From a virus, in the IMG/VR virus record IMGVR_UViG_3300025108_000005: a DNA stretch of 53,694 nt; one strand, given 5' to 3'. A program made the translations under genes and the position numbers. Within the stretch, counting starts at the first letter, position 1. Every line of letters begins with the position of its first letter. The notes below the pieces were generated by a model. It was given only the letters and a program-made list of their open reading frames with translations, made no database searches and had not been told where the DNA came from. Below, piece by piece: positions 4,250 to 53,694 of this stretch.

Positions 4250-4257
4250 ATCTTATC

Positions 4258-11356: not shown

Positions 11357-11631
11357 TTCTTCTTCCTTTTAAGCGACTTAACGCGCTTCGGTTTTCCTGC
11401 AGGTTGTCCAAGACGCTTCTTTTGGGCTATTCTACTACCCTTTTCAGTCGATGTCATCTCTGACGCGGTTTTTGGCGTTTTAGAACTTACACGCTTTGTT
11501 GGTCTGCAATATGGTGTGCCTCGCTTTTCTCCCTTTTTGCGACCACAAGCCTTGCCAGTACGGACATCCTTCCAGTCCTCTTTAAACCAACGCTTGAGTG
11601 CAGCACCTTTTTTTGTCTTACGAACAGCCAT
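11353..11631 (-). CDS. Highly basic small protein (Lys/Arg-rich)
   Basis: 92 aa, ending ...KPKRVKSLKRKKK. ATGA coupling. Confidence 0.75.
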   Translation of the reverse strand: MAVRKTKKGAALKRWFKEDWKDVRTGKACGRKKGEKRGTPYCRPTKRVSSKTPKTASEMTSTEKGSRIAQKKRLGQPAGKPKRVKSLKRKKK

Positions 11632-11912
11632 TAGCTCAACTTTGTCACTTTACGACGATTTGTCATTACTTTGCCGCATCCATTTGCAATCGCCTCTCCG
11701 CCACCTAACATACGGCGCACTGGACGCTTACGAAACTCATTTGACGGCATTATCTCACCACCTATGGCCTTATTAACAGGCTTTTTCTTACTTTTGTTTC
11801 CCCAATTCTTTGCGCCTACTTTTCGGCATTTAGCGATTGCGCCGCTTGCGTATGCGCTTGGAAAAACTTTGTACCTTGCTTTTACCTTTCGGTAGCATGC
11901 GTCTTTTGGCAT
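11631..11912 (-). CDS. Highly basic small protein with GG motifs
   Basis: 93 aa with SD AAGGTGA. Contains AIGGEIM and RMLGGGEAI. Confidence 0.75.
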   Translation of the reverse strand: MPKDACYRKVKARYKVFPSAYASGAIAKCRKVGAKNWGNKSKKKPVNKAIGGEIMPSNEFRKRPVRRMLGGGEAIANGCGKVMTNRRKVTKLS

Positions 11913-13472: not shown

Positions 13473-14381
13473 TTACGCTCCGGGTGAACCGAATACTGCG
13501 CGTGGGTCAGAATAGCCGAAGCTATAACGCTCACGAGCTTTAAAGCGCATGTTGCCTGTGTCGAAATCCGCTTCCATGTTTGTGCGCATTGGTGAACGCT
13601 CAAAATGCTTGAAGCCATTAGGTGCGTCAGTCTTAATGAAGAACGCATCTGGGTCGGTCAAGAAGTGGTTAACACTGTAACCTTCTGGAAGCATACCCAT
13701 GTTACGGATCGCGTTAACATCATTGTCTGCTGTGCCAACACGCAAAGTTGATTCCAACAAACGATCTGCAACGAATTGCAGTTGTGGTGGAATGATCAAC
13801 TTAGTGCCACGCAGAGCAATGATCATGTTGCGTTCGTCAACGAATGTTGAGATGTCGATAAGAGCATTCTCAAGTGATGTTTCGTTGAGGTCAGCAGCAG
13901 TCGAAGGTTCGTTGCGGAACGTACCACCACCAGCTAGTGGGTGGTCAGTTGCACAAAGTTCTTTGCCGTCACCGCCAGTAAAGTTGCTATCGAACGCATT
14001 ATTGAGCGTAGCAGCAGCTTTAACTTGCTTTGTGTGAGCCATAGAACGAGCCAAAGCACGAGTATAACGCGCACCAAGGCGGTCATACAGGTTATCTTCA
14101 ACAGCTTCTTCGGTTAGTGCGAATGCAAGCGCAACTGTCTCGTGTGTATAACGAGCAGTGTATGCTTCATTTGCGTTATCAAACTGGACACCAGAACCTT
14201 CATTCTTCGTCGGAGCATTTCCGAATCCGACCAGCATAACCTCTTCCTCAAAAGCACGATCTGATGCTTCTGTGTCGTAGATTTCCGCATGCTGATTTTC
14301 ATAGCGGTCATACTCCATTCCGAACAAAGCATTAAGGCCCGGCTCTAGTTCTTTAACGAGTTGTGAACGTGAAATAGCCAT
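13473..14381 (-). CDS. Major capsid protein (candidate)
   Basis: 302 aa with a strong SD GGAGAGGAG. It follows the scaffold-like gene and is followed by a terminator. No fold check was possible. Confidence 0.8.
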   Translation of the reverse strand: MAISRSQLVKELEPGLNALFGMEYDRYENQHAEIYDTEASDRAFEEEVMLVGFGNAPTKNEGSGVQFDNANEAYTARYTHETVALAFALTEEAVEDNLYDRLGARYTRALARSMAHTKQVKAAATLNNAFDSNFTGGDGKELCATDHPLAGGGTFRNEPSTAADLNETSLENALIDISTFVDERNMIIALRGTKLIIPPQLQFVADRLLESTLRVGTADNDVNAIRNMGMLPEGYSVNHFLTDPDAFFIKTDAPNGFKHFERSPMRTNMEADFDTGNMRFKARERYSFGYSDPRAVFGSPGA

Positions 14382-17440: not shown

Positions 17441-17474
17441 CTTCCATCATTTTTGCGCGTACACTACTGGTCAT
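17166..17474 (-). CDS. Small Lys/Ala-rich protein translationally coupled to portal
   Basis: The ATG overlaps the portal stop (TAATG). 102 aa, ending in KKKAPAKKKAAKKS immediately after an A7 run. Confidence 0.65.
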   Translation of the reverse strand: MTSSVRAKMMEVEKEKKIATRQREESSDNKLQHQKASVGGVSAKASGGDSIGGVEKVRARTGKGHFVKDDPNTPENEAWVEKTPKASAKKKAPAKKKAAKKS

Positions 17475-19906
17475 TACTGAACCCCCTTCATTTGTGCATT
17501 GAGAGTCGCAATGTCGCGTTGAGTTTGGATTCTATCCTCTGCGACTCGTGTTTTGTCCTCTAAAGCATCTTGCTGTAGATTCAGACGTTCTTCAGCTAAT
17601 CGCGCATCCATCATTTCGCGCTCACGCTCAAGTTCTTGCTTCGCATCAAATTCTGAAGACTTACGCTGCATATCTGCCGCTTTTAACTGCAATTCTTGTT
17701 GCCTGATCGCAACAAGCGGGTCTTCGCCTTGAGGCATTGGCTCAACAGACTGCGTAAACTCTTCTGTAAGATCCGCGATCAGTATAGCCGCTTGACGCTC
17801 TATCGCAGGCTGTAGCATCTGCATAGCCTCTGGGTTCTGCTGAACCTCTGGTCCTGCTTGCTCCATAACTATCTGCTGCGCCTGTGCTTCAGCAAGCATA
17901 CCAATGTGTTCTTGAATATGCCCCTGAAGCGTTGCCATAGCCTGCGGGTTCATTTGAACAACAGGCGTAGACATAATCGCCAAGTGAGTTTCGATGTGCG
18001 CCTTGTGGTCTTGCTGCGGGAATGCTTGCGGCATGCCGCCAGTCAACGCAATCTTATTCTCCATCGCAGCGTTCATAGGCATAGGCTGTGGTGGGGGTGG
18101 TAAGATCGCGTCGATGTTGTTAACGCCCAAGGCTTCGTACATCTTACGGTACGCTTGGTACAATCCTTGAGGCCCACCGTGGATCTGTGGATTAGATTGA
18201 ACAAGCTGCAATTGGGTTTGCGCAAGAGCAATGCGCTGGGCCATAGAGAAGATGTTAGGGTCACTTACGGGGAGTACATCGACTCGTGCATCAAAGTCCT
18301 GCGCAAAGACTTCAGGTCCAAACTCTGCAGACGGCATATAAGGATACATCTGAATTGTCTCAGAAAATACCTTTGATAGAAGTTTGAACTCAATTTTTTG
18401 CGAATAATGCATGCGCTTATGAATCGCAGACATCACTTTCGTGCCACGCTCCATAATCGCCATTGTAGTGCCTACAGGCGTGTCTCCACCCATCTCACCA
18501 ATCTTCATATCAGCCATAGCCGCAAAGCGGCGTCCTGCGTCCACGAGAGTGCCTAAAAGGTTATAAAGGGTACCAGAAGGCTCCTTGAAGGGAAGGGGCA
18601 TCAAGGAGCTTCTGATATCCGTTCCTGCAACATCAATGTCGCGGAACTCACCCGGTTGTATGGCGCTATCCTCGTCGCGAATACGCGCTCCACGAGCCTT
18701 GAAACCCGCAGGCAAGTTGGAAAGCGTACCCGCATCAATGAGTTGACGCAGTATAGAGGTAGATGCTTGTGCCAACCCGCCAATCATGTGAGTCAAGCCA
18801 AGTCCATAGAAACCAAGACCCGGCAAGAACTTGTAGTGAACGAAATACTGCTTCCGCTTCATCATAGGATCAGACTCAGAATAGTTGCGACGAATCGCAA
18901 GAATCTGACCTGTGTTCTCAATAACCGTTACAATATAAGGAAGTTTCAAACCACTTGGTGATCCTTCCTGATCCATATCCTCAAAACCGGGCAAATCCAA
19001 GTCTGTATGAATTTCATATAGCGTTAGCTCTACTGAAGCATTGCTTGGATGTACGCCTTGGATTTCATTGATAGTCTCTTGGACTTCGCTCATGTTTTCG
19101 CCAGCTTCACCATTCATTGGCAAGTCAACATCGAGATAGAAGCCTGCAAGCTGCAACTTGCGAACCTCATTTGAATCCATCTTAATTACGTGCGTAATGC
19201 GTGGGCTTGTCGCCAAGTCAACTGCACCATAAGGCACAACTAAGTCTTCAGCATGAACAAACTGGCTAACAGCACGACCTTTTAACGGATCAAAGTAAAC
19301 TTTCTTAAACGTAGAACCAATGACTGGAAGATAGAATAACATCTGATCCATTTCAGGATCATACTCTTCCATCTCGTAGGTAATCATATAGTTCATGTAG
19401 TCTTTGACGCGCTCTGCCTGCTTTGTAAGCATTTCGTTCTGCGCACCAACAACTTGTGTTCGAATTGGGCCACTCGCAGGCAACATTTCACGATACGCTT
19501 GCGCTTGAAACTGCGTTACACTCTCAGCAAGCAACGGGTGAATAACGCCAGATGAACCCTCAAATGGCTCAACACGCTCTTCATACTTCATGCCAAGAAA
19601 CTCTAAGCCTTGCTTGTAGGTGTCTTCCCAGTCTTGGCGAGATGAAAAGTCATCATCAATATTACCAGTCAAAGTAGATGAAATCTGACCAAGATCAGAG
19701 TCATCCATAAATTCTGCTAGGTTTGAGTCAAACGCAATCGCCTGAGTTTCTTCCATCTCAGTGTATTCACCAACAATGGCAGACCCATCATCAAACTCAT
19801 AAATGCCGGGAGACTGACCTAGTTCTTCTACAAGAAAATCCTCACCTTCAATCTGGGTTTCTTGCCCCATCATTCCACCCGGACCTGCATCACGTTCAAT
19901 AGCCAT
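17474..19906 (-). CDS. Portal protein (candidate)
   Basis: 810 aa, the largest head-module ORF downstream of terL, with a long C-terminal coiled-coil/acidic tail. SD AAAGGGAAG. Confidence 0.8.
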   Translation of the reverse strand: MAIERDAGPGGMMGQETQIEGEDFLVEELGQSPGIYEFDDGSAIVGEYTEMEETQAIAFDSNLAEFMDDSDLGQISSTLTGNIDDDFSSRQDWEDTYKQGLEFLGMKYEERVEPFEGSSGVIHPLLAESVTQFQAQAYREMLPASGPIRTQVVGAQNEMLTKQAERVKDYMNYMITYEMEEYDPEMDQMLFYLPVIGSTFKKVYFDPLKGRAVSQFVHAEDLVVPYGAVDLATSPRITHVIKMDSNEVRKLQLAGFYLDVDLPMNGEAGENMSEVQETINEIQGVHPSNASVELTLYEIHTDLDLPGFEDMDQEGSPSGLKLPYIVTVIENTGQILAIRRNYSESDPMMKRKQYFVHYKFLPGLGFYGLGLTHMIGGLAQASTSILRQLIDAGTLSNLPAGFKARGARIRDEDSAIQPGEFRDIDVAGTDIRSSLMPLPFKEPSGTLYNLLGTLVDAGRRFAAMADMKIGEMGGDTPVGTTMAIMERGTKVMSAIHKRMHYSQKIEFKLLSKVFSETIQMYPYMPSAEFGPEVFAQDFDARVDVLPVSDPNIFSMAQRIALAQTQLQLVQSNPQIHGGPQGLYQAYRKMYEALGVNNIDAILPPPPQPMPMNAAMENKIALTGGMPQAFPQQDHKAHIETHLAIMSTPVVQMNPQAMATLQGHIQEHIGMLAEAQAQQIVMEQAGPEVQQNPEAMQMLQPAIERQAAILIADLTEEFTQSVEPMPQGEDPLVAIRQQELQLKAADMQRKSSEFDAKQELEREREMMDARLAEERLNLQQDALEDKTRVAEDRIQTQRDIATLNAQMKGVQ

Positions 19907-21311: not shown

Positions 21312-22793
21312 CTAATAATATTCGCGTTTACGCCGCATAAACGCGGCCTCTTCTTCATCGTCATAATCACTCGGAGTGGTGATAAAACCACCCTGTCTAA
21401 AACGCAGTATAGCCTGAGTCATCGAATCCGCCAAGTCATCATGTTCACCATTGGGAAATGCGGCACATTCTTCCAACACTTCATCAGCAAAATTAGTCTC
21501 AGGTGCCCACACCATACCACTTTCAAACACTGGCGCACAGGCATGCATTCGCGTAAACTTGTCAGCGCCACGACCCGGAGTAAACGGAGTTACAGGAATA
21601 CCCATACGCCTCAACTCCTGCGTCAACGGCATTCCAGAACCTTTTTGCTCAATTAAAATCATATCAGGGTCAAACTCTCCCCAAAGATCATGAGCCGCTT
21701 TCTTTAGTTCAGGAAACTCCCACCTGCCCCTAACAGCATCAATTAAAATAATATGATCCTCACCTGTCTCCTCATGGTGAAAAATACCCCAAGTTGTTAT
21801 GGCAGAGTAGTCAGCCCTATCACTTTTACTAAACGCAGTATCGTAAGACTGGATAATATAGCTACAAGGTGGGGGATCATCTTTCTCCCAGAGGTTCCAC
21901 CACTCCCTTTTAATAATCGCACCCTCTTCTGCAGTCGGGTTCTGCATATACTGAGCATTCCATTTGCTCACCGGAATAGATGCTTTTACGCCCTCAAGCT
22001 CATCTAAAGACCAAAATTCAGGCCAGAGTGGACCGCCACTGGGCATAATTGCAGGAAACTCTACAACTTCCCACTTATCAGCACCTTTTTCACTCTGCTT
22101 CTGCAAAACCTTCGCTGTTAGATCACGAATCGACCATCGTGTCATAACAATAATAATCGCACCGCCGGGTTGCAAACGCTGTCGAGGACCAGAAGTGTAC
22201 CATTCGTAGATATTATCTAACGCAGTTACACTTAACGCATCTTGTTCCGAAACAGGATCGTCAATAATCGCGAGGTCAGCACCGCGACCCGCAAGCGCAC
22301 CGCCAACGCCAACCGCGTAATATTCGCCACCACCGTTTGTACTCCAGCGGCCACTCGCTTTCGCATCTGTTGCAAGACTGACATTAGGGAAAACATCACG
22401 AAAATCCTCGCTATCAATTAGATTTTTAACCTTACGACCAAAGCCAACAGCCAACTCAGCCGTGTGAGTCGCCTGAATAATCTTTAAATCAGGCCGTCTA
22501 CCCATCAGCCACGTTGGAAACAAATAACTCGCGAACTCAGACTTCGTATGTCGAGGCGGCATATTCACAATCAAACGCTTCAACTTTCCATCCGCTACAT
22601 CCTGCAGCTTCTGAGCGTAAATCTTGTGGTGCCTGCCCTCAATAAACTGAGGCCAAACATGCTTTACAAAATTCATAAAGTTGTCGTGCTTTTCCGACCT
22701 ATCATCTAACGTTTTAAGCCGCTCCAACATGGGAGCGACTTTCGCTAACTCTTCGTCGGTTAGATACTTAGTAAAATCACTAAGATCATTCAT
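21312..22793 (-). CDS. terL: Terminase large subunit
   Basis: 493 aa with a terminase-like ATPase core (..NMPPRHTKSE.., Walker-B-like DLAIIDDP) and a C-terminal nuclease-like half. Confidence 0.85.
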   Translation of the reverse strand: MNDLSDFTKYLTDEELAKVAPMLERLKTLDDRSEKHDNFMNFVKHVWPQFIEGRHHKIYAQKLQDVADGKLKRLIVNMPPRHTKSEFASYLFPTWLMGRRPDLKIIQATHTAELAVGFGRKVKNLIDSEDFRDVFPNVSLATDAKASGRWSTNGGGEYYAVGVGGALAGRGADLAIIDDPVSEQDALSVTALDNIYEWYTSGPRQRLQPGGAIIIVMTRWSIRDLTAKVLQKQSEKGADKWEVVEFPAIMPSGGPLWPEFWSLDELEGVKASIPVSKWNAQYMQNPTAEEGAIIKREWWNLWEKDDPPPCSYIIQSYDTAFSKSDRADYSAITTWGIFHHEETGEDHIILIDAVRGRWEFPELKKAAHDLWGEFDPDMILIEQKGSGMPLTQELRRMGIPVTPFTPGRGADKFTRMHACAPVFESGMVWAPETNFADEVLEECAAFPNGEHDDLADSMTQAILRFRQGGFITTPSDYDDEEEAAFMRRKREYY

Positions 22794-22796
22794 AAA

Positions 22797-25700
22797 TTAC
22801 CCCGCAAGAGCTTTCAGGAAGTTATCCGCAGTGCGATTTAAACCCGCCATTCCACCATCCTGCATAGGACGAATGTTCGCAGAAATCGGAGCAATCTTAG
22901 GCGCACGCGTTGTAATGCGCGCCATAATATCATCAAATCTACGAGATGATGGAATACCTATCCCAATTGGAGATGATACCGTATCAGACTTCTCCTCTTC
23001 CGCAGGTGGCTCACACATGTCTGTATCAGAGTTGTAAACATAACCCTCATCGTTACAGACCTTGTTTCCATCATCATCAGTTGTGTAGTTCTTTATCTCT
23101 TCAGAACCATCGTCACCGCCAGTGGTTGTTTCAGTCACACCAAGAGCCTCGGCAACGTTCTGACCGCCGCCAACTTCAAGTGGAACAGTTCCGTCTGTAA
23201 TCTCAACTACATTGCCACCTGCATCAACAAAGAACTCTTTACCATCTGAGGTAATAAATCCTTGCTCCGTTGACATGCCCGTAGGATCTGCACTCGCAGC
23301 AGTTGATTGTGCGCCAAAGACCTGCTGGAAGCGATCATAATCTGAAACACCATCACCATCTGCGTCAGCTTTATATGCAGGATTGCTATATGCAGGAAGA
23401 CTTAACGTCTGACCAACTGTAAGAGCGTCAGCTTGTGCATTCAGGCCAGAACCCCTTAGTGAATCAATCATATCCTGTGTGACAGTAAATGAAGATGCCT
23501 CAGAACTCGGCGGCATAAAGGCCATAATATCATCTGCCGCAAGAACCTTATCTGCAAAGGTATCCATAGTGCTTATGTCAAACCCAATGTAGTTGCCATC
23601 CTCATCAGTCTTCGGTGTTGCGCCATTCTGTAGCGCATACACATGCTGATCAATAATCGCCTGACGATTCTCACGGCTTGAGCCACGCAGCTTGTCAGCC
23701 AAAGGCTTGCCAAGACCAAAGCCCAAGCCACCAATAACGTCATAGAAAATTGACTCTATGCCAGTCGGCTCTGCCTGATCGCCAATTTGCTGCTTGATCT
23801 TCTCAACATTATCATCGCGACGACCTTGCTCAACCTGTCTGCCAGTCTCACTCGCAGCACCAATCGTAAGAGCAGTAGAACCTGCGCCCTTATCCAAGCC
23901 ACGCGAAATTCCCTCAAACTGCTTACCAAGCGCAGCTTCAAACTCTTCTGGAGTCAACTTGCCACTCTTCAAATCAGAAAGACCCTTGCCGCCAGCCAAG
24001 TCATTCATAACCAAATGCGTACCAATACGCTCCTGAGTGCCCTCGTCAAACTTAGCATTAGGATCAACAATTCCCTGATCAACCAAGGACTGCAACGTAG
24101 AGCCAACAACCTGATATTTACCAGCAGGCGTAGAAATAACACCAGAACCATCTGCACGAGTCATGCCACGCTGCGTGTTAACGCCTTGAGAGTAAGCAGC
24201 ATAAGAATCTTTGCCACGCAGATTCTGGAAGTCCAAGACCTCCTGAACCGTCATGTTCGTTAAATCAACGCCAAAGCGCCCCTCTTGACCACCAAGAAGA
24301 CGACCATAACCGCCCTCATCAGCCGTACCTTCAGCGCGAGAAATACGATTTTTAATCTCAGAGAGCGAAGTATAACCAGCTTCTGGCGGAGCAAAATCCT
24401 GAACAGTAGATGGAGCACCCAATCCACGCTCCAGATCAGAAACAGGACCACTTGGAAGCCCCATATCATCATCCGTAAGTGGAACATTAGTAACACGATC
24501 ACGATCAAATGGGTCCATGTCAGCATCAAGGTTCCGACCAGCCTTAGATACGTTAAGGTCAAGTATATTATCGTCAATGCCATACGTCTCTATCCCTCGA
24601 GAAGATGCAGGTAGAAATTGAGTAATGTCAGGGTCATTCATAGATGTTATAGGCTGAACTCCTAAAACACCGCCTCTAGTATCACCTAAAGGTGGAAGAC
24701 CGCCAACGCCAGCAATGTCGCTGTAAGTAATTGGTGACGGATCAAAGATATTAATCTCACGACCCTCTGGATAATTCTGAAGATACGTTGGGTAAGCCCT
24801 AGCAGCGGCTCGATTCGCTTGCTCTGGACTGTCAAAAATACCTGATTCACGAGCCGTAGCAGAAAAACTATCTATTCCCTGCTGACCAGAACCATACAAA
24901 CGTAACTGCGCAGCAAACGCACGATCAGCCGTGTCAGCCGCCGCCTGCGAGTCATGCTGATTCCCACGGCGATCCGTATATACAGGGGCAGAAACAGGAT
25001 CAATAACACTAATCACAGACGATCCGGCATTACCAGATGACGCAGTATTCAAAATATCATCAATGCTAGAACCAGTCGCAACAGTCACATTGCCACCACC
25101 AGTGTCATACGTGGTCGTACCAGTCCCAGATGTTAAATCCGCAACCGTTACAGTCTTGTCAGAACCACCAACACCAAGATCAGCGTCCTTCGCACTCGTG
25201 TTTACAGAACTTGAATCATCATCGCCGCCAAAAATCGCATCGTGATAATCAGCTACATTGTCAAAAGTATTCCCGCCATAGCTGAAACTCGTATTATCAT
25301 CCGCCTGAACGGCAGCATTCGCAATCGCATCTAAACTTACATTTCCAGATGGACCAATTGAAGAACTGTCATCATTATCGCTCTTCGCCATATCTTTTAG
25401 ACTATCCCTCACCTTGTTAATCTCAGCATAATCCCTGCTAATCACACTTTCAGGCGGATAACTCGGGATACCAGCAGGACCAGAAATGCCTGAACCACCA
25501 AAACTACGAAGCAAAGCCTCCTCATCCTGATTAATATACGCCAACATATGCGGCTGATCAGCAATCATAGTGCTGCGAGGAACAGAATCACCGCCGAAAG
25601 GGCCAGATACCTCTCCCCCCATACGCATATTATTCACATCGCCATACCCATAAAGATCAACATCACCAGTATCTATAGGCGCAATACCAGAATACATCGT

Positions 25701-27125
25701 CCCATAAGTCGGCGTACTCAAGAAATCAAAAATATCAATCTCAACAGGTCGCGCAGGCAATTTAATCGCCCCAATAGGACTCGTAGCAACCATTTCAGGA
25801 CCGTAACTCGTCGTTAAACCACCCGTAATAGGATCAGTCATATACTGAGAAACACTCGTAGGAATGTTGACCTTAGGGCCAAATAATGCAGCCTGCTCAC
25901 GCGTACCCAGCGTAACAACGCCAGTCTCAGGATCAACAGTGTCATAACCACCAGTCGTCCTACCAACATCACCAGTAAACTGACTGTAATCAATCTCATT
26001 AACCTCACTAGGATCAACAGGAGCAGCCGTATAACTACCAGTGCCAAAATTACCACCAGCACCTACCGCACTGCCAGCACCAGCTTGCGCCCCAGTAATC
26101 GTAGAAACAGGAGCAGAAGTAACCTTATCCACAGAAACAGAAGCCTGAGAAGGTGCCTCATATTCACCAACATAAACACGAACAGGAGTCCAACCTGTCT
26201 CGTCACTACCCTCCCAGTTAAGAACATTATCACCAAAACGATAATTCATAATGTCCGCCATATCCATAACAGCACCACGAGTGCTGCGGTAACGACCATC
26301 ACCCAAATCCTCATAGCCAGCATTCAATAAATTAGAACGAACCATAGACTCACGAGCAGGATCAGACGAATAACCAGAACGTGCCTCACCCATATAATCA
26401 AAACCCTGACCCTCAATCGCAGATTTAGCCGCAGAAATACTGCCATAACCAGCCTGAACCGTCGGGTCTAAATCATCACGACCAAAAAGCGCATTAAACG
26501 AAACAGGATTACCCGAAGAATCAACAACCTTGTAACGCTCACCGCTACGAACAACATTCAAATCAGAACCAGAACCTAAACCAGACGAAGATGACTCCTT
26601 AACCAAGTCATAATACTCATCCATACTACCAATCCCCTCACCCAAAACAGGGGGACCACCATCCTCAAAATACTGTACAGGACCACCATCAGCATAACCA
26701 AAAATATCAACCTCACCACCCATAGCCATAGGACGAGGCGCCATAGACTGCATCGGAGGAGTACGCATCATAGGAGTGCCCGGCGCAACCATACGCTGCT
26801 GTGGCATCATCTGGGGCGGCATCGCACTCTGAGGCTGTGGCATGGACGCACCCAAACCCTGATTGCGACCCAACATCCCCTCTAACGCATCGCCAAAACG
26901 ACGACGACGACCCGCCGTAGATCCCTGCATCTGCTGACCCTGAGGCATAGGTGGCATCTGAGGAGGTGGACCCCCAGCCAACGGCATCGGAGGCATAGGC
27001 GCAAAAGGATTCGGAGGGGGAGCAGATGGCATGCCCGGTGAAGGCGGCATACCACCCATAGGCTGCATCGGTGCAGGCATTCCGGGCATCGGCGGGGGAG
27101 TCATTCCAGTCTTAACTGCAGGCAT
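22797..27125 (-). CDS. Giant internal-virion/ejection-type protein (1442 aa) with Met/Pro-rich N-terminus and lytic transglycosylase domain
   Basis: Start re-set to the ATG at 27123-27125 with SD AGGAGA. It is a single ORF, and the stop abuts the terL start. Confidence 0.9.
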   Translation of the reverse strand: MPAVKTGMTPPPMPGMPAPMQPMGGMPPSPGMPSAPPPNPFAPMPPMPLAGGPPPQMPPMPQGQQMQGSTAGRRRRFGDALEGMLGRNQGLGASMPQPQSAMPPQMMPQQRMVAPGTPMMRTPPMQSMAPRPMAMGGEVDIFGYADGGPVQYFEDGGPPVLGEGIGSMDEYYDLVKESSSSGLGSGSDLNVVRSGERYKVVDSSGNPVSFNALFGRDDLDPTVQAGYGSISAAKSAIEGQGFDYMGEARSGYSSDPARESMVRSNLLNAGYEDLGDGRYRSTRGAVMDMADIMNYRFGDNVLNWEGSDETGWTPVRVYVGEYEAPSQASVSVDKVTSAPVSTITGAQAGAGSAVGAGGNFGTGSYTAAPVDPSEVNEIDYSQFTGDVGRTTGGYDTVDPETGVVTLGTREQAALFGPKVNIPTSVSQYMTDPITGGLTTSYGPEMVATSPIGAIKLPARPVEIDIFDFLSTPTYGTMYSGIAPIDTGDVDLYGYGDVNNMRMGGEVSGPFGGDSVPRSTMIADQPHMLAYINQDEEALLRSFGGSGISGPAGIPSYPPESVISRDYAEINKVRDSLKDMAKSDNDDSSSIGPSGNVSLDAIANAAVQADDNTSFSYGGNTFDNVADYHDAIFGGDDDSSSVNTSAKDADLGVGGSDKTVTVADLTSGTGTTTYDTGGGNVTVATGSSIDDILNTASSGNAGSSVISVIDPVSAPVYTDRRGNQHDSQAAADTADRAFAAQLRLYGSGQQGIDSFSATARESGIFDSPEQANRAAARAYPTYLQNYPEGREINIFDPSPITYSDIAGVGGLPPLGDTRGGVLGVQPITSMNDPDITQFLPASSRGIETYGIDDNILDLNVSKAGRNLDADMDPFDRDRVTNVPLTDDDMGLPSGPVSDLERGLGAPSTVQDFAPPEAGYTSLSEIKNRISRAEGTADEGGYGRLLGGQEGRFGVDLTNMTVQEVLDFQNLRGKDSYAAYSQGVNTQRGMTRADGSGVISTPAGKYQVVGSTLQSLVDQGIVDPNAKFDEGTQERIGTHLVMNDLAGGKGLSDLKSGKLTPEEFEAALGKQFEGISRGLDKGAGSTALTIGAASETGRQVEQGRRDDNVEKIKQQIGDQAEPTGIESIFYDVIGGLGFGLGKPLADKLRGSSRENRQAIIDQHVYALQNGATPKTDEDGNYIGFDISTMDTFADKVLAADDIMAFMPPSSEASSFTVTQDMIDSLRGSGLNAQADALTVGQTLSLPAYSNPAYKADADGDGVSDYDRFQQVFGAQSTAASADPTGMSTEQGFITSDGKEFFVDAGGNVVEITDGTVPLEVGGGQNVAEALGVTETTTGGDDGSEEIKNYTTDDDGNKVCNDEGYVYNSDTDMCEPPAEEEKSDTVSSPIGIGIPSSRRFDDIMARITTRAPKIAPISANIRPMQDGGMAGLNRTADNFLKALAG
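23980..24350 (-). other. Lambda-R-like (GH104-type) lytic transglycosylase domain inside the giant protein
   Basis: RAEGTADEGGYGRLLGG...STPAGKYQVVGSTL parallels lambda R WSEGT...GYDVIVGG...STGAGRYQLL. The putative catalytic Glu codon is at 24330-24332. Confidence 0.65.
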
Positions 27126-27178
27126 CCAATAAATTCTCCTAAACGAACCTAACACGCATCCTAACAGCTACTCAAAAT

Positions 27179-27549: not shown

Positions 27550-27579
27550 TTTATGGGACAGTCTAGGGTACCTTGTCAA
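27550..27579 (-). promoter_or_regulatory. Sigma70-like promoter for the late operon
   Basis: Minus strand reads TTGACA(27574-27579)-18 nt-CATAAA(27550-27555). The -35 overlaps an iteron copy. Confidence 0.45.
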
Positions 27580-27676
27580 GCCGTAGGGTACCTTGGAAGG
27601 GACAAACGGTGACATCCACCTTTAGGGGGTGTCCCTTGTCCATAGGGTACCTTGAAGGGCTTAGGGTACCTTGTGA

Positions 27677-27696
27677 TTTTTTTAAAAAATTTTTTT
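27677..27696. promoter_or_regulatory. T7-A6-T7 tract (possible DNA-unwinding element)
   Basis: tttttttaaaaaattttttt lies immediately next to the iteron pairs. Confidence 0.5.
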
Positions 27697-27790
27697 GTGG
27701 TGACTGTAGGTGGATTTCTTAGTGTAAGTGCTGTCCGACACGCGCCAGAATATAGGGGGGGGTGCATGGCCCCCATATCCCCCGTTTCTA

Positions 27791-27802
27791 GAACAATTGT
27801 TC
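27791..27802. promoter_or_regulatory. Perfect 12-bp palindrome GAACAATTGTTC (copy 1)
   Basis: Exact palindrome in intergenic DNA between the amidoligase terminator and the iterons. Confidence 0.85.
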
Positions 27803-27829
27803 GGTTTTCTTAGGGTACCTTGGAAAAGC

Positions 27830-27852
27830 AAAAAAGCCCGCACTAGGCGGGC
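27830..27852 (-). terminator. Rho-independent terminator after the amidoligase gene
   Basis: Minus strand reads GCCCGCctagtGCGGGC followed by tttttt. Confidence 0.75.
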
Positions 27853-27882
27853 TTCTCTGTGGCTGTGGCATGGTCTTGACGC

Positions 27883-28953
27883 TTAACGCGCCAAGTATTC
27901 TATTCGCTCTTGCCAATATTCAAATATGTCGTCGGATGTTTCAGCCCATATTGACGCGATGCCACGCTCGCTTTCGTCGCGCAATTGAACAGCGCCGTCG
28001 GTTGTCTGAAACGCCGTCAACACTTCGTAGCGCGTGTGATCTGTTCCGTCACCATATGACGCGCCGTTTGATTGTTGCGTGTGGGTGACAACCGCGCTTT
28101 CGCCAACGCGCTGCCGGATTTCAGTAACAGCGGCGCGGACGCGCTGCTCACTACAGCCGGTTGCGTCCATGATGTCGCGCGTTGAAACGCCACCATTATC
28201 ATTGCGCATCATGGTGTACTGAACGCCAACGCGTGAATTTCTGCGAAATGGCCCAACCGGCGTATCTTGAACAATTGTTCTGGTGCCATTTTCAACGCGG
28301 TTTTCAATTGTGTGGTTGATGAAATTCAAAAGGAATTTTACCCAATTGATAATTTTGTCCGCGTCAATTGTGCCACCATGCTGACGAAATTCAATTGTGC
28401 CACTACGCCATGTGTCGAGATTAATCGCATAGAATTTGCCATGATTTAATTCGCTAATTGTTGAAGCGTTTTCTATGCGCGATGCGCTCAATGGTTGCGC
28501 GTATCGGTTCATGGTGCGCGAACGTGCAAACATACTATCCAGCGTTGCTTGCTGGCGCTCATAGCGATACATGATGTCCTTTACCACCACGGCGTCCATA
28601 GGTTCACCATGCGCTGACAGAAAACCACCACGCGCCTCAGTGTGTGCAATGCTTGCACCAGTAAAATCTGCGGCGTTTACGCCGTCTAATGGCGCGTTTG
28701 AAATGTGAACGTGCAAGCCACATGATGTATTGATTGCACAACCAACGTTTTCCAAAACGCGGCAAACGCTTTTGATATAGTCCTCAGCAATTGGATGATT
28801 GCCCAATGGTGGCAATACGATTTCAGCGTCAACGTTCGGTGTGCCGTCTGGCTTTACTTGGCAACCGATAATTCCAGCGCGTTCCAGTGCATTTTTAACG
28901 CGGCTTATTGAAACGCCGCTTGTTTCGATTTCTATTCCAAATGTGTAAGTCAT
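27883..28953 (-). CDS. Putative amidoligase (Amidoligase_2 / GS-like COOH-NH2 ligase family) with about 110-aa C-terminal extension
   Basis: N-terminal FGIEIE, central CGLHVHIS and GTIEFRQHGGT match my recollection of the Amidoligase_2 signature. The C-terminal STRDIMDATGCSEQRVRAAVTEIRQRVG looks HTH-like. Confidence 0.75.
   Translation of the reverse strand: MTYTFGIEIETSGVSISRVKNALERAGIIGCQVKPDGTPNVDAEIVLPPLGNHPIAEDYIKSVCRVLENVGCAINTSCGLHVHISNAPLDGVNAADFTGASIAHTEARGGFLSAHGEPMDAVVVKDIMYRYERQQATLDSMFARSRTMNRYAQPLSASRIENASTISELNHGKFYAINLDTWRSGTIEFRQHGGTIDADKIINWVKFLLNFINHTIENRVENGTRTIVQDTPVGPFRRNSRVGVQYTMMRNDNGGVSTRDIMDATGCSEQRVRAAVTEIRQRVGESAVVTHTQQSNGASYGDGTDHTRYEVLTAFQTTDGAVQLRDESERGIASIWAETSDDIFEYWQERIEYLAR
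28269..28280. promoter_or_regulatory. Perfect 12-bp palindrome GAACAATTGTTC (copy 2, inside the amidoligase CDS)
   Basis: Encodes RTIVQ at about residue 224, where the recognisable amidoligase core ends. Confidence 0.85.
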
Positions 28954-29068
28954 TGTTTTTGTTACCTTTTTTCTAGATTGTAGGGCAAAGCTGTCGCCCT
29001 ATACCTAGTTTATGCGCCATTTTTTCCCATAATACAAGGGGTTTTGTGGGATATTGTGGGATAAACCA

Positions 29069-29080
29069 GAACAATTGTTC
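29069..29080. promoter_or_regulatory. Perfect 12-bp palindrome GAACAATTGTTC (copy 3)
   Basis: Lies upstream of the amidoligase gene. The extended match GAACAATTGTTCGGGTT(A/G)TTG is shared with copy 4. Confidence 0.85.
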
Positions 29081-29110
29081 GGGTTATTGATTTGACCAAC
29101 GCCGCGACAC

Positions 29111-29138
29111 AAAAAAAGCGCGCCAAAATTGACGCGCG
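29111..29138 (-). terminator. Rho-independent terminator (minus strand)
   Basis: Minus strand reads GCGCGtCAAttTTGgCGCGC followed by ttttttt. Confidence 0.7.
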
Positions 29139-29183
29139 AAAATCGGTTTTTTTTATATTTATAGAGAACGCGCGCGATCATGC

Positions 29184-29236
29184 GTGTGTATATGTGTATA
29201 TGTGTGTAGTTATATATACATAGGTATATATACTAT
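29184..29236. repeat. Alternating purine-pyrimidine (TG/TA)n tract
   Basis: gtgtgtatatgtgtatatgtgtgtagttatatatacataggtatatatactata. Confidence 0.85.
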
Positions 29237-29237
29237 A

Positions 29238-29299
29238 CCCCGAACCCCGAAGCCCGAAGCCCGAACCCCGAAAGCCCGACCCCGAAGGATCAGGCCCGA
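29238..29299. repeat. Tandem heptamer array (G/C)CCCGAA (TTCGGG(G/C) on the minus strand)
   Basis: Five perfect back-to-back 7-mers at 29238-29272, then three more units with small spacers up to 29299. Confidence 0.9.
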
Positions 29300-29303
29300 T
29301 TGT

Positions 29304-29600
29304 TTATTTCATTGTATGCGCAAGTGTTGTCATTGCACTCGTTGTCGGGTTCCCGTTGTTCACGATAAAAGTATAGCAATGAACGTTGCAGGCAAGAACA
29401 CCGAAGCGTTCAGCGTCATGGTATCTCATGAATTGAGGCTCCTCATCCATATCAACTGGTTCAGAAGTGCCGTAGTTTTTAACTGCCCATTGGCAAAATT
29501 CTTGGAAAGGCTTTTCGTCCTCATATTCAAACCCGCTCGTGTCATCATAAAACAGCGCGGTTGCCCAAAACTCGGGCAACTCCAGTGTGATCGTTTCCAT
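29304..29600 (-). CDS. Hypothetical acidic protein
   Basis: Start re-set to the ATG at 29598-29600 (TAATG coupling, SD GAGGGGG). 98 aa, METITLELPEFW... Confidence 0.75.
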   Translation of the reverse strand: METITLELPEFWATALFYDDTSGFEYEDEKPFQEFCQWAVKNYGTSEPVDMDEEPQFMRYHDAERFGVLACNVHCYTFIVNNGNPTTSAMTTLAHTMK

Positions 29601-29788
29601 TATTCCACCCCCTCTAATACTTCCATTGCATGCTCTAAGGCTTCTTGCTCGTTGTCGATTCCGTAGCAAGTAAAGCAATGATAATCGACCCACTGTCCTT
29701 GGATCGGGGTCTGCAAGTTAAAAGTTGCTGACTCGTTCCACTCAATGCGAAGATAATCGCCGTTATGCTCTAATTCCCAGTGTTTCAT
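29600..29788 (-). CDS. Hypothetical small protein
   Basis: 62 aa with SD AAGGAG. Confidence 0.75.
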   Translation of the reverse strand: MKHWELEHNGDYLRIEWNESATFNLQTPIQGQWVDYHCFTCYGIDNEQEALEHAMEVLEGVE

Positions 29789-29799
29789 TGTTTTTCTCC

Positions 29800-30111
29800 T
29801 TAATATCTGGCTGCGTAATAGCGCATTTGATCAATGGCCACATCGTTTGCAATTTTATAATTACCTTCGTCGTACTGACGCATAATAAATGCTTTCAGCG
29901 CATTTTCGTTATTGCAAATAAAATCCAAGAAATCGTCACGATCTTCTTCGTCGTCAAAATCAATCACTCCATCAATATTGCGCGATGCATCTCTAAAAAC
30001 GATGTCGTGCTTTAGAAACTGATCGTCATATGAGCCATTGTCTTTGATAAGAGTGTTCAGCACTTGCTCTGTGTCGTACTGCCTACCTGTTTCGATCATT
30101 TTAAAAAACAT
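29800..30111 (-). CDS. Hypothetical acidic protein
   Basis: Start re-set to the ATG at 30109-30111 with SD GAGGAAAAAG. 103 aa. Confidence 0.75.
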   Translation of the reverse strand: MFFKMIETGRQYDTEQVLNTLIKDNGSYDDQFLKHDIVFRDASRNIDGVIDFDDEEDRDDFLDFICNNENALKAFIMRQYDEGNYKIANDVAIDQMRYYAARY

Positions 30112-30143
30112 TTTCTTTTTCCTCACTACTAGACTGTAATCCC

Positions 30144-30172
30144 ACATTATCCCACACATTATTATATGTCAA
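30144..30172 (-). promoter_or_regulatory. Sigma70-like promoter for the 3-gene cassette
   Basis: Minus strand reads TTGACA(30167-30172)-17 nt-TAATGT. The spacer carries TGGGATAatgTGGGAT. Confidence 0.45.
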
Positions 30173-30195
30173 CACAAAATATAAAAAAAATTATG

Positions 30196-30486
30196 CCGGG
30201 CCGTGCCGGGTAAAACTGCCGGGGATTCATCCGGGCGCGAACAATTGTTCGGGTTGTTGTTCCGGGAATGCGTCGGGAGTTTACCGGGAAGGAGTTCCGG
30301 GCAGGCCAGCGACGGGAAGATGTTACCGGGGAGCTTTACCCGAACAATTTCTCGGGTTATACTATACCCGGAAGCCCGAATCCCGAATGCCCGGAGAGCC
30401 GCAGAGCGCCCCTAAGAGTTAACCCGAACAATTTAGGCACCCAGACACCCCGAAAACCCGAAACCCCGACCAGACGGCCCCGAAAA
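30196..30486. repeat. Dispersed short-repeat array: about 12 (C/T)CGGG units at 10-14-bp spacing, then about 7 CCCGAA units
   Basis: CCGGG/TCGGG at 30196, 30206, 30219, 30231, 30250, 30262, 30273, 30284, 30297, 30311, 30325. CCCGAA at about 30339, 30374, 30381, 30423, 30449, 30457, 30479. Confidence 0.85.
30239..30250. promoter_or_regulatory. Perfect palindrome GAACAATTGTTC (copy 4; 14-bp CGAACAATTGTTCG here)
   Basis: Embedded in the CCGGG array. Confidence 0.85.
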
Positions 30487-30531
30487 CGGCTCTGAGGGCG
30501 GGCGGAAGCCCCTCCCCTCCAAGAGTTCCCG

Positions 30532-31056
30532 CTATTCTGCGGCTTCGCCGTTACAATCAGTTATAGGGATTGGTTCGGATTCTGTGGGATTTTCTGTTGG
30601 TGTTACGTCAATCATGCGATTTTTAGCACGATCCATAAATTCTTGCAGTTGTTCTACGATTTGATCCCTGCTGAGATTATCAACGTGTTCGTGTGTGACA
30701 TGGCTACGCGCTACCATGAGGCCCGTGACCTTTAGCCTAAGTTCTTCTGCTTTGATAGCTGCGGAGAAGTTGCCTTGCTCCCATGCCTCATCGCGCAACC
30801 GCTGCATATCCCGAACAGATTTGGTTATTGTTACGCCGTACTTGCTTTCGAGTTCTTGGCGCATTTCTTCCATGCGTTCTTTTACGCGTGGATGATTGAG
30901 AAGCTGCACGGCTGATACGTTCGGGTTTTTATATCCCGCTGCTCTGGCTGCTGCGGTTTGCGTCATGTCTTTGTGAATGTAGTTATCAAGAAACTTCTGC
31001 TGCGGGGGAGTTAGTCGCTTTTCCCCTTTTGCTATCTGTTCTCCGACCTTTGGCAT
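30532..31056 (-). CDS. terS: Terminase small subunit (Terminase_2-like HTH)
   Basis: LTPPQQKFLDNYIHKDMTQTAAARAAGYKNPNVSAVQLLNHPRVKERM is the typical TerS N-terminal HTH, followed by a coiled-coil core. Confidence 0.75.
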   Translation of the reverse strand: MPKVGEQIAKGEKRLTPPQQKFLDNYIHKDMTQTAAARAAGYKNPNVSAVQLLNHPRVKERMEEMRQELESKYGVTITKSVRDMQRLRDEAWEQGNFSAAIKAEELRLKVTGLMVARSHVTHEHVDNLSRDQIVEQLQEFMDRAKNRMIDVTPTENPTESEPIPITDCNGEAAE

Positions 31057-31129: not shown

Positions 31130-31190
31130 GTGCTACATTTCCCAAAATATCCCAACATTGCATCGGGCTGCGCTGCGTTAAAAAACATCA

Positions 31191-31226
31191 GGGGGGGGTT
31201 AGTATATACCCCCCCTTATAGGGGGG
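31191..31226. repeat. Homopolymer G8 / C7 / G6 tracts able to form alternative hairpins
   Basis: G8 at 31191-31198, C7 at 31209-31215, G6 at 31221-31226. The TATAGGGGGGTG box also occurs at 27751-27764. Confidence 0.85.
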
Positions 31227-31390
31227 TGACGTAGATAACGTAAATTAACCTATTGATTTTATTACGTTATTTACGTCAAAACGACTTTTTAACGTAATTC
31301 CCGTAAATCGTTAAACCGTTGATTTTATTACATATTCTACGTTACGTTACTTACGTCAGCTTTTGACGTAAATTATTTTGACGTAAATTA
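31227..31390. repeat. ACGT-core repeat array (TGACGTAA / TTACGTCA), including a perfect tandem 15-mer
   Basis: About 10 ACGT cores in 160 bp. ttttgacgtaaatta occurs at 31361-31375 and 31376-31390, with inverted copies at 31270-31281 and about 31350. ttgattttattac is duplicated at 31253 and 31319 (66-bp period). Confidence 0.9.
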
Positions 31391-31415
31391 ATATAAAATA
31401 GTTTATAAAAAGTTA

Positions 31416-31445
31416 TTGACAGTCCCAAACTATCCCATATATAAG
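31416..31445 (+). promoter_or_regulatory. Early rightward sigma70-like promoter
   Basis: TTGACA(31416-31421), spacer gtCCCAaacTATCCCAt, then TATATA/TATAAG. AAGGAGG lies before the ATG at 31484. Confidence 0.6.
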
Positions 31446-31879: not shown

Positions 31880-32099
31880 GATTGAAAAAGGTATTCCGAT
31901 TCCAGATGGCGAGGGGCGTGGGCGCGAGAAAAGCCCATTGCGCCTTGCTGTGGAGAAAATGGAAGTTGGCGATAGCGTTTTGGTTAGTAAAACGCACCGT
32001 CAGCAGCTTCATGCCGTGTCGAATACACTTGGCATTAAGTACAAAACCCGAACAATTTGCAAAGAAAGCAAAACGGTTCGTTTTTGGCGCACAAAATAA
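31872..32099 (+). CDS. Small hypothetical protein (MFEIEKGIPIP...VGDSVLV...VRFWRTK)
   Basis: 75 aa, overlapping the upstream stop. Confidence 0.8.
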   Translation: MFEIEKGIPIPDGEGRGREKSPLRLAVEKMEVGDSVLVSKTHRQQLHAVSNTLGIKYKTRTICKESKTVRFWRTK

Positions 32100-32103
32100 C
32101 ATT

Positions 32104-32126
32104 GGGGGCGCAATGCCCCCTTTATT
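32104..32126 (+). terminator. Weak terminator or attenuator hairpin
   Basis: GGGGGCgcaatGCCCCC followed by tttatt. Confidence 0.45.
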
Positions 32127-32143
32127 CTAGCAAAGGAGAAGAC

Positions 32144-32545
32144 ATGTATTATTTAGCATATGGAATGAACACGAACCGCGAGGCTATGGCTGCGCGATGC
32201 CCTAATGCCAAGCCTATGGGCGGCTTTTATTTACCTGACCACCGTTTGACGTTTCGCGGAGTGGCTGACTTTCGCTACGATGCTGACATGGTTTTACCAG
32301 TTGTTTTGTGGGAGATTACGCACGATTGTTTGAGGGCGTTAGACCGACTTGAGGGCTACCCGACTTTGTACGACCGCCGCAAGATCAACGGCAATTGGTT
32401 GATTTACGATATGAACGGCAACAAGGGCGCACTGGGCACACCGTCTGGCGGCTACTATAAAATGATTGAGGAGGGCTACCGAGACTTTGGGCTTGATGAT
32501 TGGTATTTACGCGCTGCGGCGAAAGATGCGGAGTTAGCGGCATGA
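32144..32545 (+). CDS. Gamma-glutamyl cyclotransferase-like (AIG2/GGCT family) protein
   Basis: Start re-set to the ATG at 32144 with SD AAAGGAGAAG. MYYLAYGMNTN...ALDRLEGYPTLYDRR matches the YxxYGSN...LD.xEG..Y.R signature. Confidence 0.8.
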   Translation: MYYLAYGMNTNREAMAARCPNAKPMGGFYLPDHRLTFRGVADFRYDADMVLPVVLWEITHDCLRALDRLEGYPTLYDRRKINGNWLIYDMNGNKGALGTPSGGYYKMIEEGYRDFGLDDWYLRAAAKDAELAA

Positions 32546-53670: not shown

Positions 53671-53694
53671 GCCCCTGCTTCGCTAAAATTATAA
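53671..53694. repeat. Terminal overlap (copy of nt 1-24)
   Basis: Identical 24-mer. Confidence 0.95.

Follow-up and report, generated by a model that had tools for sequence, protein, structure and literature searches.

The 53,694-nt stretch of viral DNA analysed here (IMG/VR record IMGVR_UViG_3300025108_000005; the window) carries dense arrays of a short polar motif, TCGGG, in non-coding DNA downstream of a gene for a small terminase subunit (terS, encoding TerS). The first 24 nt of the window are identical to the last 24 nt (1–24 and 53671–53694); the window is a circularly closed assembly, the complete genome of a phage of approximately 53.67 kb. The region of the arrays is transcribed leftwards, on the minus strand, in the order terS, a 372-bp gap between terS and a gene cassette (Block B), the three small open reading frames (ORFs) of the cassette, a second array (Block A) and an amidoligase gene. 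Its features are listed below, with the basis of each call in brackets.

30532–31056, minus strand: terS-like gene, 174 aa, with an N-terminal helix–turn–helix (HTH) of the SPP1/SF6 G1P type (Pfam, PHROG, PDB)
30481–30531, minus strand: GC-rich stem–loop straight after the terS stop codon, without a U-tract (closed hairpin over the first 51 nt of the RNA fold)
30367–30486, minus strand: terS-proximal array, 9 TCGGG/CCGGG units, mostly 7–8 bp apart (sequence; kept in relatives)
30339–30356: type I palindrome, CCCGAACAATTTCTCGGG, with inverted TTCGGG half-sites 6 bp apart (sequence)
30237–30254: type II palindrome, perfect core CGAACAATTGTTCG, within the promoter-proximal array (sequence)
30196–30330, minus strand: promoter-proximal array, 10 YCGGG units (plus-strand reading), spacing 10–18 bp (sequence)
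30139–30190, minus strand: putative cassette promoter, with a T-run, TTGACA (30167–30172) and TGGGATAATGTGGGAT containing GATAAT (30146–30151) (sequence; kept in relatives)
29304–30111, minus strand: variable cassette of three small acidic ORFs, of 103 aa (29800–30111), 62 aa (29600–29788) and 98 aa (29304–29600) (ORF list)
29238–29299, minus strand: Block A, the cassette-distal array, 8 TCGGG(G/C) units including 5 perfect heptamers (sequence, Tandem Repeats Finder)
29177–29236: TA/CA-rich alternating tract abutting Block A (nearest-neighbour stability)
29118–29137, minus strand: intrinsic terminator, GCGCGTCAATTTTGGCGCGC then T7 (terminator prediction)
29066–29085: third palindrome copy, reading AACCCGAACAATTGTTCTGG on the minus strand; lies upstream of the gene for the amidoligase (27883–28953) (sequence)

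Read on the minus strand, which is the sense strand of terS, the recurring unit is TCGGG(G). In Block A, its complement CCCGA starts at 29239, 29246, 29253, 29260, 29267, 29275, 29281 and 29295 (spacings of 7, 7, 7, 7, 8, 6 and 14; Tandem Repeats Finder score of 63–77), and the edge of the block lies 4 nt from the stop codon (29304–29306) of the last cassette gene. These positions confirm the five heptamers and three further units that a preliminary description of this DNA had placed directly past the last cassette stop. The counts and coordinates that it gave for Block B were also correct: 11 YCGGG units on the plus strand at 30196–30352 (spacings of 10, 13, 12, 18, 13, 11, 11, 13, 29 and 26) are followed by 10 CCCGR units at 30339–30479, 7 of which are CCCGAA. 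The repeat density that it reported in Block B stands as well, and the layout can now be refined, as the block is a composite of a tight TCGGG array (CCCGR starts at 30367, 30375, 30382, 30390, 30423, 30449, 30457, 30465 and 30479), two palindromes and a looser CCCGG array. The palindromes, the two kinds of array, the variability of the cassette and a better origin candidate (below) are additions to that description. The looser, promoter-proximal array reads CCCGG on the terS-sense strand and is opposite in orientation to the other arrays. Block A has the same orientation as the terS-proximal TCGGG array, and these two tight arrays are direct repeats of each other, including TATAGTATA after the units.

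This clustering is non-random and unique in the genome. The densest 150-bp windows of the two blocks hold 12 and 9 YCGGG/CCCGR units, compared with 4 in the next best window and a maximum of 5 across 100 Markov simulations; the two blocks are the only such clusters in 53.7 kb, and they lie 45–1300 bp downstream of the terS stop codon. The window as a whole contains 41 copies of CCCGAA, against 19.4 ± 4.0 in shuffles. Plus-strand ORFs that cross the blocks (29184–29666, 30203–30415 and 30268–30495) were rejected as coding on the basis of single-base indels within the arrays between close relatives. Clustered restriction sites were also considered: CCSGG has 38 copies elsewhere in the genome (0.71 per kb, for which an expectation was not computed) and is not read as an avoided site.

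The palindromes consist of the TTCGGG hexamer of the arrays in inverted orientation. The type I palindrome, which reads CCCGAgaAATTGTTCGGG on the minus strand, lies between the tight and loose arrays of Block B; its family consensus is AACCCGAnnAATTGTTCGGGTT, with one to three copies per relative. Perfect GAACAATTGTTC palindromes occur at 27791, 28269, 29069 and 30239, all four between 27.8 and 30.3 kb. The core CGAACAATTGTTCG resembles a Gram-positive LexA box, and we draw no inference from this resemblance. A host transcription-factor site, which could have served as a clue to the host, was tried and rejected, because the bacterial matches are terminator hairpins and the left inner half-site is unconserved in type I. 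Exact matches to the 18-bp palindrome CCCGAACAATTGTTCGGG were found in 71 contigs from bacteria or archaea, with many Bacteroidota among them; there the sequence forms an ordinary bidirectional terminator hairpin between runs of A and T, and the matches are uninformative on the host.

To follow the arrays through related genomes, we scanned IMG/VR with TerS, which is encoded by 275 stretches (the best 80 are 88–98% identical), and fetched two further lineages, with TerS 72–74% identical, via the protein database. Anchoring on the gene for the large terminase subunit (terL, encoding TerL) gave 467 IMG/VR stretches, and 80 terL-anchored loci were examined for arrays; unit statistics were taken from 58 distinct regions downstream of terS. 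The arrays are kept in every examined relative that spans the region (TerS 72–98% identical), and their layout is constant in more than 60 distinct relatives. In the direction of terS, the order is terS, a GC hairpin, a TCGGG array with a period of 6–8 bp, one or more palindromes, a CCCGG array and the promoter, followed by zero to three small ORFs, a second forward TCGGG array and TA-rich DNA. The cassette-distal array is present in 50 of the 58 distinct regions, with 4–13 units (mode 6–8) at a period of 6–8 bp. The reverse units are mostly CCGGG, spaced 11–19 bp apart, and in one relative (L073, approximately 200–360 downstream of terS) the promoter-proximal CCCGG is replaced by CCCAGG/CCAGG (CCWGG-like), so the reverse array is more plastic than the TCGGG arrays.

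Close relatives differ in the number of units and in the spacer or loop sequences but share the motif; one array reaches 12 units. The arrays are thus subject to the turnover typical of tandem repeats but are retained throughout, which excludes a neutral microsatellite; this candidate is ruled out both by the 50 distinct regions and by the lineages with more distant TerS proteins (72–75% identical), which also have arrays. The preliminary description had proposed a search of related genomes for arrays beside terS, with neutral expansion as the outcome if they were absent or not conserved; they were found there, and kept.

The sequence of the unit is constrained as well. When the distal arrays were redefined by the density of G-runs alone (48 arrays, 321 G-runs), the dinucleotide TC preceded 314 of the 321 runs. 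Orientation is strict too. Tight arrays in the 80 terL-anchored loci run in the terS/terL direction in 21 of 21 cases, with none opposite, and all terL-anchored loci that reach far enough upstream have both terS and arrays. In the lineage L083–L085 (TerS 72% identical), the cassette genes lie on the opposite strand and both TTCGGG arrays keep the orientation of terS. Together with the 21 terL-anchored arrays, this ties the polarity of the arrays to the genome and not to local transcripts, which favours a directional function at the level of DNA and disfavours one at the level of mRNA.

The linkage to terS is also seen from the side of the motif. Among the matches listed when IMG/VR was searched for the pattern of four TCGGG units at close spacing, we examined 119 loci. 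The 21 that encode this TerS all have irregular non-coding arrays. In 83 of the 98 without it, the match lies within an ORF of 150 codons or more; perfect hexamer microsatellites from unrelated viruses account for most of these matches.

The wider kin of this phage have other repeats in the same place. The window encodes the gene set of a tailed phage, with TerL (21312–22793), a portal (17474–19906) and a major head protein (13473–14381), as well as a primase–helicase, a helicase, a Cas4-type exonuclease, Sak4 and an endolysin; its replication genes lie at 35.5–44 kb. TerL is 55–62% identical to that of Pelagibacter phages HTVC027P and HTVC023P and of phages 023Pt_psg01 and DSL-LC04, and the genome is a distant relative of the HTVC023P-type pelagiphages. 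A megablast search with the window found no relative among cultured phages at the DNA level, and a tblastn search with TerS against cultured phages likewise gave no match. The TerS proteins of these four sister lineages are homologous to that of the window (27–29% identical), and each lineage has its own, different repeats beside terS or in the terS–terL interval. HTVC027P (L002) has heptamer arrays, (GCTTGAA)n, at approximately 10830–10880 and 11145–11175, without G-tracts; HTVC023P (L241) has three 33-bp repeats directly after terS, at 4245–4345; 023Pt_psg01 (L001) has (GCTCGCT)n and a recurring GGGCCCACCCNCCCC at 11340–11470; and DSL-LC04 (L089) has (TGGGCCG)n upstream of terL, at 11450–11665, and its own palindrome, TGTTTGTA..TACAAACA, in each cassette gap. 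Given the constraint on TC, the differing arrays of the sister lineages and the palindromes built from the unit hexamer, the arrays are almost certainly a polar double-stranded DNA element that is read by a sequence-specific protein.

The arrays also bracket a slot of variable gene content. Genomes with near-identical flanks have between zero and three ORFs in the cassette. In 12 genome pairs, the junctions could be mapped: the genomes are homologous across terS and Block B and as far as the promoter or ribosome-binding site, where homology is lost, to return within 0–8 nt of the 5′ edge of the distal array. Three relatives without a promoter-driven cassette (L024, L030 and L043) have a single fused array. 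On these comparisons, the cassette is a hypervariable slot bounded by the arrays. None of its three proteins in the window has a Pfam or PHROG match, and all are acidic (pI 4.3–4.4). The 98-aa protein is the most widespread of the three, with homologues in this lineage only; its AF2 model, which is confident (pLDDT 83), has no match to a fold in the PDB. A DNA-binding protein inside the cassette was accordingly rejected, given the acidity of all three proteins and the lack of a PDB fold match for the 98-aa model. Our guess is that these are early accessory or counter-defence genes.

Both near the arrays and among the window proteins scanned, TerS is the one DNA-binding protein identified with confidence. 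The preliminary call of terS is supported by matches to Pfam Terminase_2 (PF03592; 2.8e-10, 41.4 bits, cut-off of 26.1), to PHROG 51 (1.8e-14) and, at the N terminus, to the DNA-binding domains of SF6/SPP1 G1P (PDB 4zc3, 3zqp and 2cmp; 2e-6 to 1e-5). Residues 1–80 are basic (pI 9.7), and conservation along the protein is uniform, giving no pointer to a recognition helix. No ribbon–helix–helix (RHH) or strong HTH regulator was found among the window proteins scanned; other DNA-binding matches were weak and sub-threshold (HTH_8 and Sigma70_r3).

We tentatively propose, with a probability of roughly one in three (0.35), that the TCGGG arrays are a loading or recognition array (a pac region) for the adjacent SPP1/SF6-type TerS, and that the repeats also serve as fixed flanks for cassette exchange. 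The reader would most likely be the ring-forming small terminase encoded immediately upstream. TerS would nucleate on the palindromic, inverted TTCGGG sites and then fill the tandem TCGGG units, and the filled array would mark the DNA as that of the phage and determine in which direction TerL is loaded and headful packaging proceeds. A candidate site of the cut or of entry is the TA-rich, easily melted tract beside the distal array. Kept identical by this recognition function, the direct-repeat arrays could double as constant flanks, between which small early accessory genes are gained, lost and exchanged. The relatives of TerL (which recognisably include those of Aaphi23-, Pam1- and Staphylococcus-type phages) and the circular closure of the genome are compatible with headful packaging. 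TerS rings of 8–11 subunits have been reported, a number of the same order as that of the tandem units (5–12).

Several properties are shared with the pac regions of SPP1 and SF6 (pacL–pacC–pacR, with boxes A, B and C bound by G1P): the adjacent TerS is of the Terminase_2 type and has an N-terminal HTH of the same family, and the DNA beside terS is non-coding and contains several sets of short direct repeats. In the accepted model for SPP1 and SF6, a ring of DNA-binding domains engages many direct-repeat sites of pac simultaneously (PMC4737164). The boxes of SPP1 are few and poorly conserved, whereas the window has a strict pentamer repeated 20–30 times, and its terS is detached from terL by 7.7 kb. 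The repeats specific to each sister lineage would be expected if the repeats co-evolve with TerS.

Other observations weigh against a role in packaging. The pac regions of SPP1 and SF6 span the promoters and 5′ end of terS, whereas the arrays of the window lie 3′ of terS and a different family of repeats, TTACGT, occupies its upstream side. The period of the arrays is 7 bp, although approximately 10 bp per subunit would be expected if the DNA wrapped around a ring of TerS. The arrays are two in number, at a separation of approximately 1 kb that depends on the content of the cassette. The DNA-binding domains of SF6 TerS bind almost without sequence preference (PMC4737164), and so do not predict a strictly conserved TCGGG. 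The linkage of arrays and terS could be plain synteny, and any other lineage-specific protein would give the same pattern of repeats among the sister lineages. In HTVC027P, the (GCTTGAA)n arrays abut the −35 elements of two cassette promoters, which favours a regulatory function. Contig ends of relatives, tried as a proxy for genome termini and rejected, are spread evenly over the 5.5 kb downstream of terS, without a hotspot (hand-binned). The suggestion of a pac or TerS-binding site in the preliminary description therefore gains from the conservation, sequence specificity and uniqueness of the arrays, their shared orientation with terS and terL and their place beside an SPP1/SF6-type terS, and loses from their position 3′ of the gene.

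Packaging sites of other phages offer partial parallels. In the pac site of P1, repeats of the hexamer TGATCA/G, which are Dam sites recognised by PacA/PacB, flank the cleavage region (7 copies in approximately 160 bp). Block B is similar in that clusters of a short motif flank a centre, with forward units, a palindrome and reverse units, and differs in that the P1 hexamers are Dam sites. T7 and T3 have short-repeat arrays beside the terminal repeats at the concatemer junction, and T7 has fixed direct terminal repeats. In both cases, units of approximately 7 bp are regularly spaced within podovirus DNA that is non-coding; in T7 and T3 the site is linked to the processing and packaging of concatemers, as it would be here under the packaging proposal. 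The terminase system of T7 is another one, and the sequences are unrelated.

A more specific form of the packaging proposal takes the arrays as telomere-like. TTCGGG(G) is one base from the telomere repeat TTAGGG, and shares with TTAGGG and TTGGGG the same G-quadruplex-forming pattern; Greive et al. name human TRF1 (hTRF1) as one of the nearest structural homologues of the DNA-binding domain of SF6 TerS. Polar telomere-like TCGGG(G) repeats would then form the packaging signal of a clade of uncultured marine podophages that is abundant worldwide, with one unit per subunit of the ring made by the detached TerS, and would also act as landing pads for a hypervariable slot of early accessory (possibly anti-defence) genes. 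Telomere repeats, whose readers have Myb/TRF-type HTHs, lie at DNA ends, whereas the arrays of the window span 40–60 bp and are internal to a circular assembly. We treat the resemblance as a lead, not a test, and consider this form of the proposal unlikely; if it were true, packaging, its direction and the turnover of the cassette would be coupled through one DNA element.

Some of the alternatives could coexist with a packaging function. The best of them is that the arrays are operators or insulators: a dimeric regulator (from the phage or the host, or TerS acting as one) would bind the palindromes and spread over the half-site arrays, much as on heptad-repeat operators, and so regulate or insulate the promoter of the early cassette and its neighbours. 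We find this doubtful. The palindromes are operator-like, as expected for a dimeric protein, and lie upstream of three successive transcription units (30239/30342, 29069 and 27791); the CCCGG array is just upstream of the T-rich tract and TTGACA promoter; and the sister lineages add both the promoter-abutting heptamers of HTVC027P and the palindrome repeated in each cassette gap of DSL-LC04. The tight TCGGG arrays, however, are 3′ of genes and not at promoters, promoters of like architecture (approximately 31410, 32930 and 44200) have no arrays, and in L083 the orientation follows the genome and not local transcription. The scanned proteins, moreover, include no RHH or strong HTH regulator.

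The closest parallel for such operators is that of the omega (RHH) repressor of inc18 plasmids (pSM19035), which consist of contiguous 7-bp units, direct and inverted, in runs of approximately 7–10, and are read by one small protein. The omega sites overlap promoters and come with the RHH gene; in the window, the tight arrays have a period of 6–8 bp and one orientation, and the inverted units are another variant, at a spacing of 11–19 bp.

The promoter itself was not called by a consensus promoter scanner, owing to its 15-nt spacer; we read the repeated ATCCCACAWTATCCCAC motif as its −10 region. Promoter-like sites at approximately 31410, 32930 and 44200, and at 30146–30172, share a T-run, TTGACA and a −10 element with (T)ATGGGAT or ATCCCAT, which may be a clade-specific −10 variant or a factor-binding site. 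At the other end of the cassette, the terminator at 29118–29137 would end cassette transcripts past Block A. Relatives have equivalent hairpins of G and C runs at the place of the stem–loop downstream of terS.

Recombination could instead be the primary role of the arrays, which with the promoter would be homology blocks through which co-infecting phages exchange, insert and delete cassettes, a role proposed for the PeSL elements of T4. The junctions mapped on either side of the cassette fit this view, as do the variable ORF number between near-identical flanks, the fused single arrays of genomes in which the promoter-driven cassette is missing and the direct repetition of the two arrays, TATAGTATA included. 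Recombination requires homology, however; it has no need of a palindrome, a strict TC–GGG unit or a fixed polarity. Junctions would fall at the first conserved element irrespective of its role, and arrays persist in genomes without a cassette. As a primary function we rate it as rather unlikely. PeSL elements of T4-type phages are units of an early promoter and a stem–loop that flank the ORFs of hyperplastic regions and are scattered many times through the genome. The likeness lies in conserved regulatory blocks that flank small variable early ORFs and coincide with recombination junctions (12 pairs here); the difference is that the window has its arrays at one locus, with a promoter on one side of the slot and a polar array of tandem repeats on the other. 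Should the arrays prove to be regulatory or recombinational instead of a packaging signal, the organisation and exchange of variable early genes in this clade would still be defined by them.

A further alternative is that the arrays act through structure, with the G-rich strand forming G-quadruplexes or stable R-loops beside the easily melted TA tract and serving in replication priming, polymerase pausing or the stabilisation of transcript 3′ ends. The genome has three canonical G-quadruplex motifs (at least four tracts of three or more G, with loops of 1–7 nt), all within the blocks and all on the minus strand, and the mean G4Hunter score over the 48 related arrays is 1.57, at the level of approximately 1.5 or more expected of such elements. 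The tract abutting Block A is the third least stable 60-mer of the genome (dG −65.8, against a mean of −82.2 and a standard deviation of 5.1). Directly past Block A comes TATAGTATATATA and then this tract; most relatives have TATATATA-type repeats after the distal array, and the others have another AT-rich end. In some relatives the distal array ends in a T8 run, a further point in favour.

The G-quadruplex pattern singled out in the preliminary description is thus present, with canonical motifs and a high score, but it explains the arrays poorly. Selection on G-tracts alone does not account for the TC before nearly every G-run, which a quadruplex does not need, and sister-lineage arrays such as the (GCTTGAA)n of HTVC027P have no G-tracts, so that not all are quadruplex-prone. 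In L083, one array is antisense to the flanking genes, which places its G-rich strand outside the transcripts of those genes. ViennaRNA folds of the region predicted only duplex hairpins, a result that bears on duplex structure and not on quadruplexes. The RNA fold of Block B is only modestly better than that of shuffles (z = −2.8 in the window; median of −2.9 in 41 relatives), and its arms are unbalanced (15.7 forward against 7.2 reverse units) and uncorrelated in length (r = −0.24); a conserved long RNA hairpin was rejected as the main function of Block B on these grounds. We consider a structural role, as the function that maintains the arrays, improbable.

An origin was among the alternatives offered in the preliminary description; it would be a replication origin of the iteron type, with tandem binding sites and an adjacent DNA-unwinding element. 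Tandem repeats do adjoin a very AT-rich tract of low stability, as this requires. A better candidate lies elsewhere:

31225–31395 (locus 31225–31443): iteron-like TTACGT/TGACGTAA repeat family, approximately 12 units, between the divergent terS and early promoters

This locus includes a perfect 15-bp tandem repeat (TTTTGACGTAAATTA twice, at 31361–31390) and adjoins the second least stable 60-mer of the genome. It seems a better candidate than Block A for an origin or an early operator, which lowers the standing of Block A as an origin. Its motif changes between sublineages that keep the TCGGG arrays: L007–L013 have TTTACGGTA or TTTACAGTA units at the 31.3-kb site. The arrays, moreover, are two per genome and not a single locus, and have no adjacent initiator gene, with terS, the acidic small ORFs and the amidoligase gene as neighbours. 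We regard an origin at the arrays as quite improbable.

Least probable of all is Chi-like polar protection, in which tandem oriented sites for the host RecBCD or AddAB would shield the unpackaged end left by the terminase cut or a rolling-circle tail: a short G-rich polar unit of invariant orientation relative to the genome, copies that would presumably raise the chance of recognition and the arrangement of Block B, in which units of opposite orientation on the two sides of a palindrome would shield each end of a central cut, are all in its favour, but the forward and reverse units differ (TCGGG against mostly CCGGG), and we know of no precedent for natural Chi arrays in phages.

In kind, the arrays join pac sites, heptad operators and iterons among the known protein-binding regions of short repeats. 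We have not seen the following combination described: a strict pentamer, polar telomere-like arrays, palindromes of half-sites, a detached terS and a bracketed hypervariable slot, in hundreds of genomes. Papers on HTVC023P-type phages make no mention of these repeats, of genome termini or of TerS binding; the preliminary description knew of no described phage element of such architecture. The wider group of HTVC023P-like phages is reportedly more abundant than any other group of marine phages (bioRxiv 10.1101/2019.12.14.876532), and the relatives identified here number in the hundreds in marine viromes (275 stretches anchored on terS and 467 on terL). Arrays beside terS yield a packaging hypothesis that can be tested with existing virome reads. 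They mark the edges of a hypervariable slot in which accessory or counter-defence genes are likely to sit, and may offer a case in which rings of TerS-type HTHs read a strict short motif, in contrast to the sequence-independent model for SF6.

Other features of the region and the genome were noted in passing. Upstream of terS, at 31190–31228, lies a G8...C7...G6 hairpin (GGGGGGGGTTAGTATATACCCCCCCTTATAGGGGGG), and similar hairpins of G and C runs occur at other gap boundaries and in relatives. Five copies of TAGGGTACCTTG, which contains GGTACC, form a third motif family at 27560–27830, in the 400-bp gap between the amidoligase terminator (approximately 27835–27860) and the next gene; the same gap has a GAACAATTGTTC palindrome (27791) and a G8/C5 hairpin (27755–27785). 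The array region is flanked by the Amidoligase_2 gene (27883–28953) and a gamma-glutamyl cyclotransferase-like gene (32057–32545), a pair found again near terS in relatives L083 and L086. An ORF of 1452 aa with no Pfam match (22797–27155) abuts terL directly. No tRNA genes were found in the window, and the Rfam scan gave no known RNA family within Blocks A or B. Its sole match in the window is the Mu-gpT-DE RNA (RF03012; 13313–13365, minus strand; 75 bits, E = 9e-16), positioned directly downstream of the major head protein gene.

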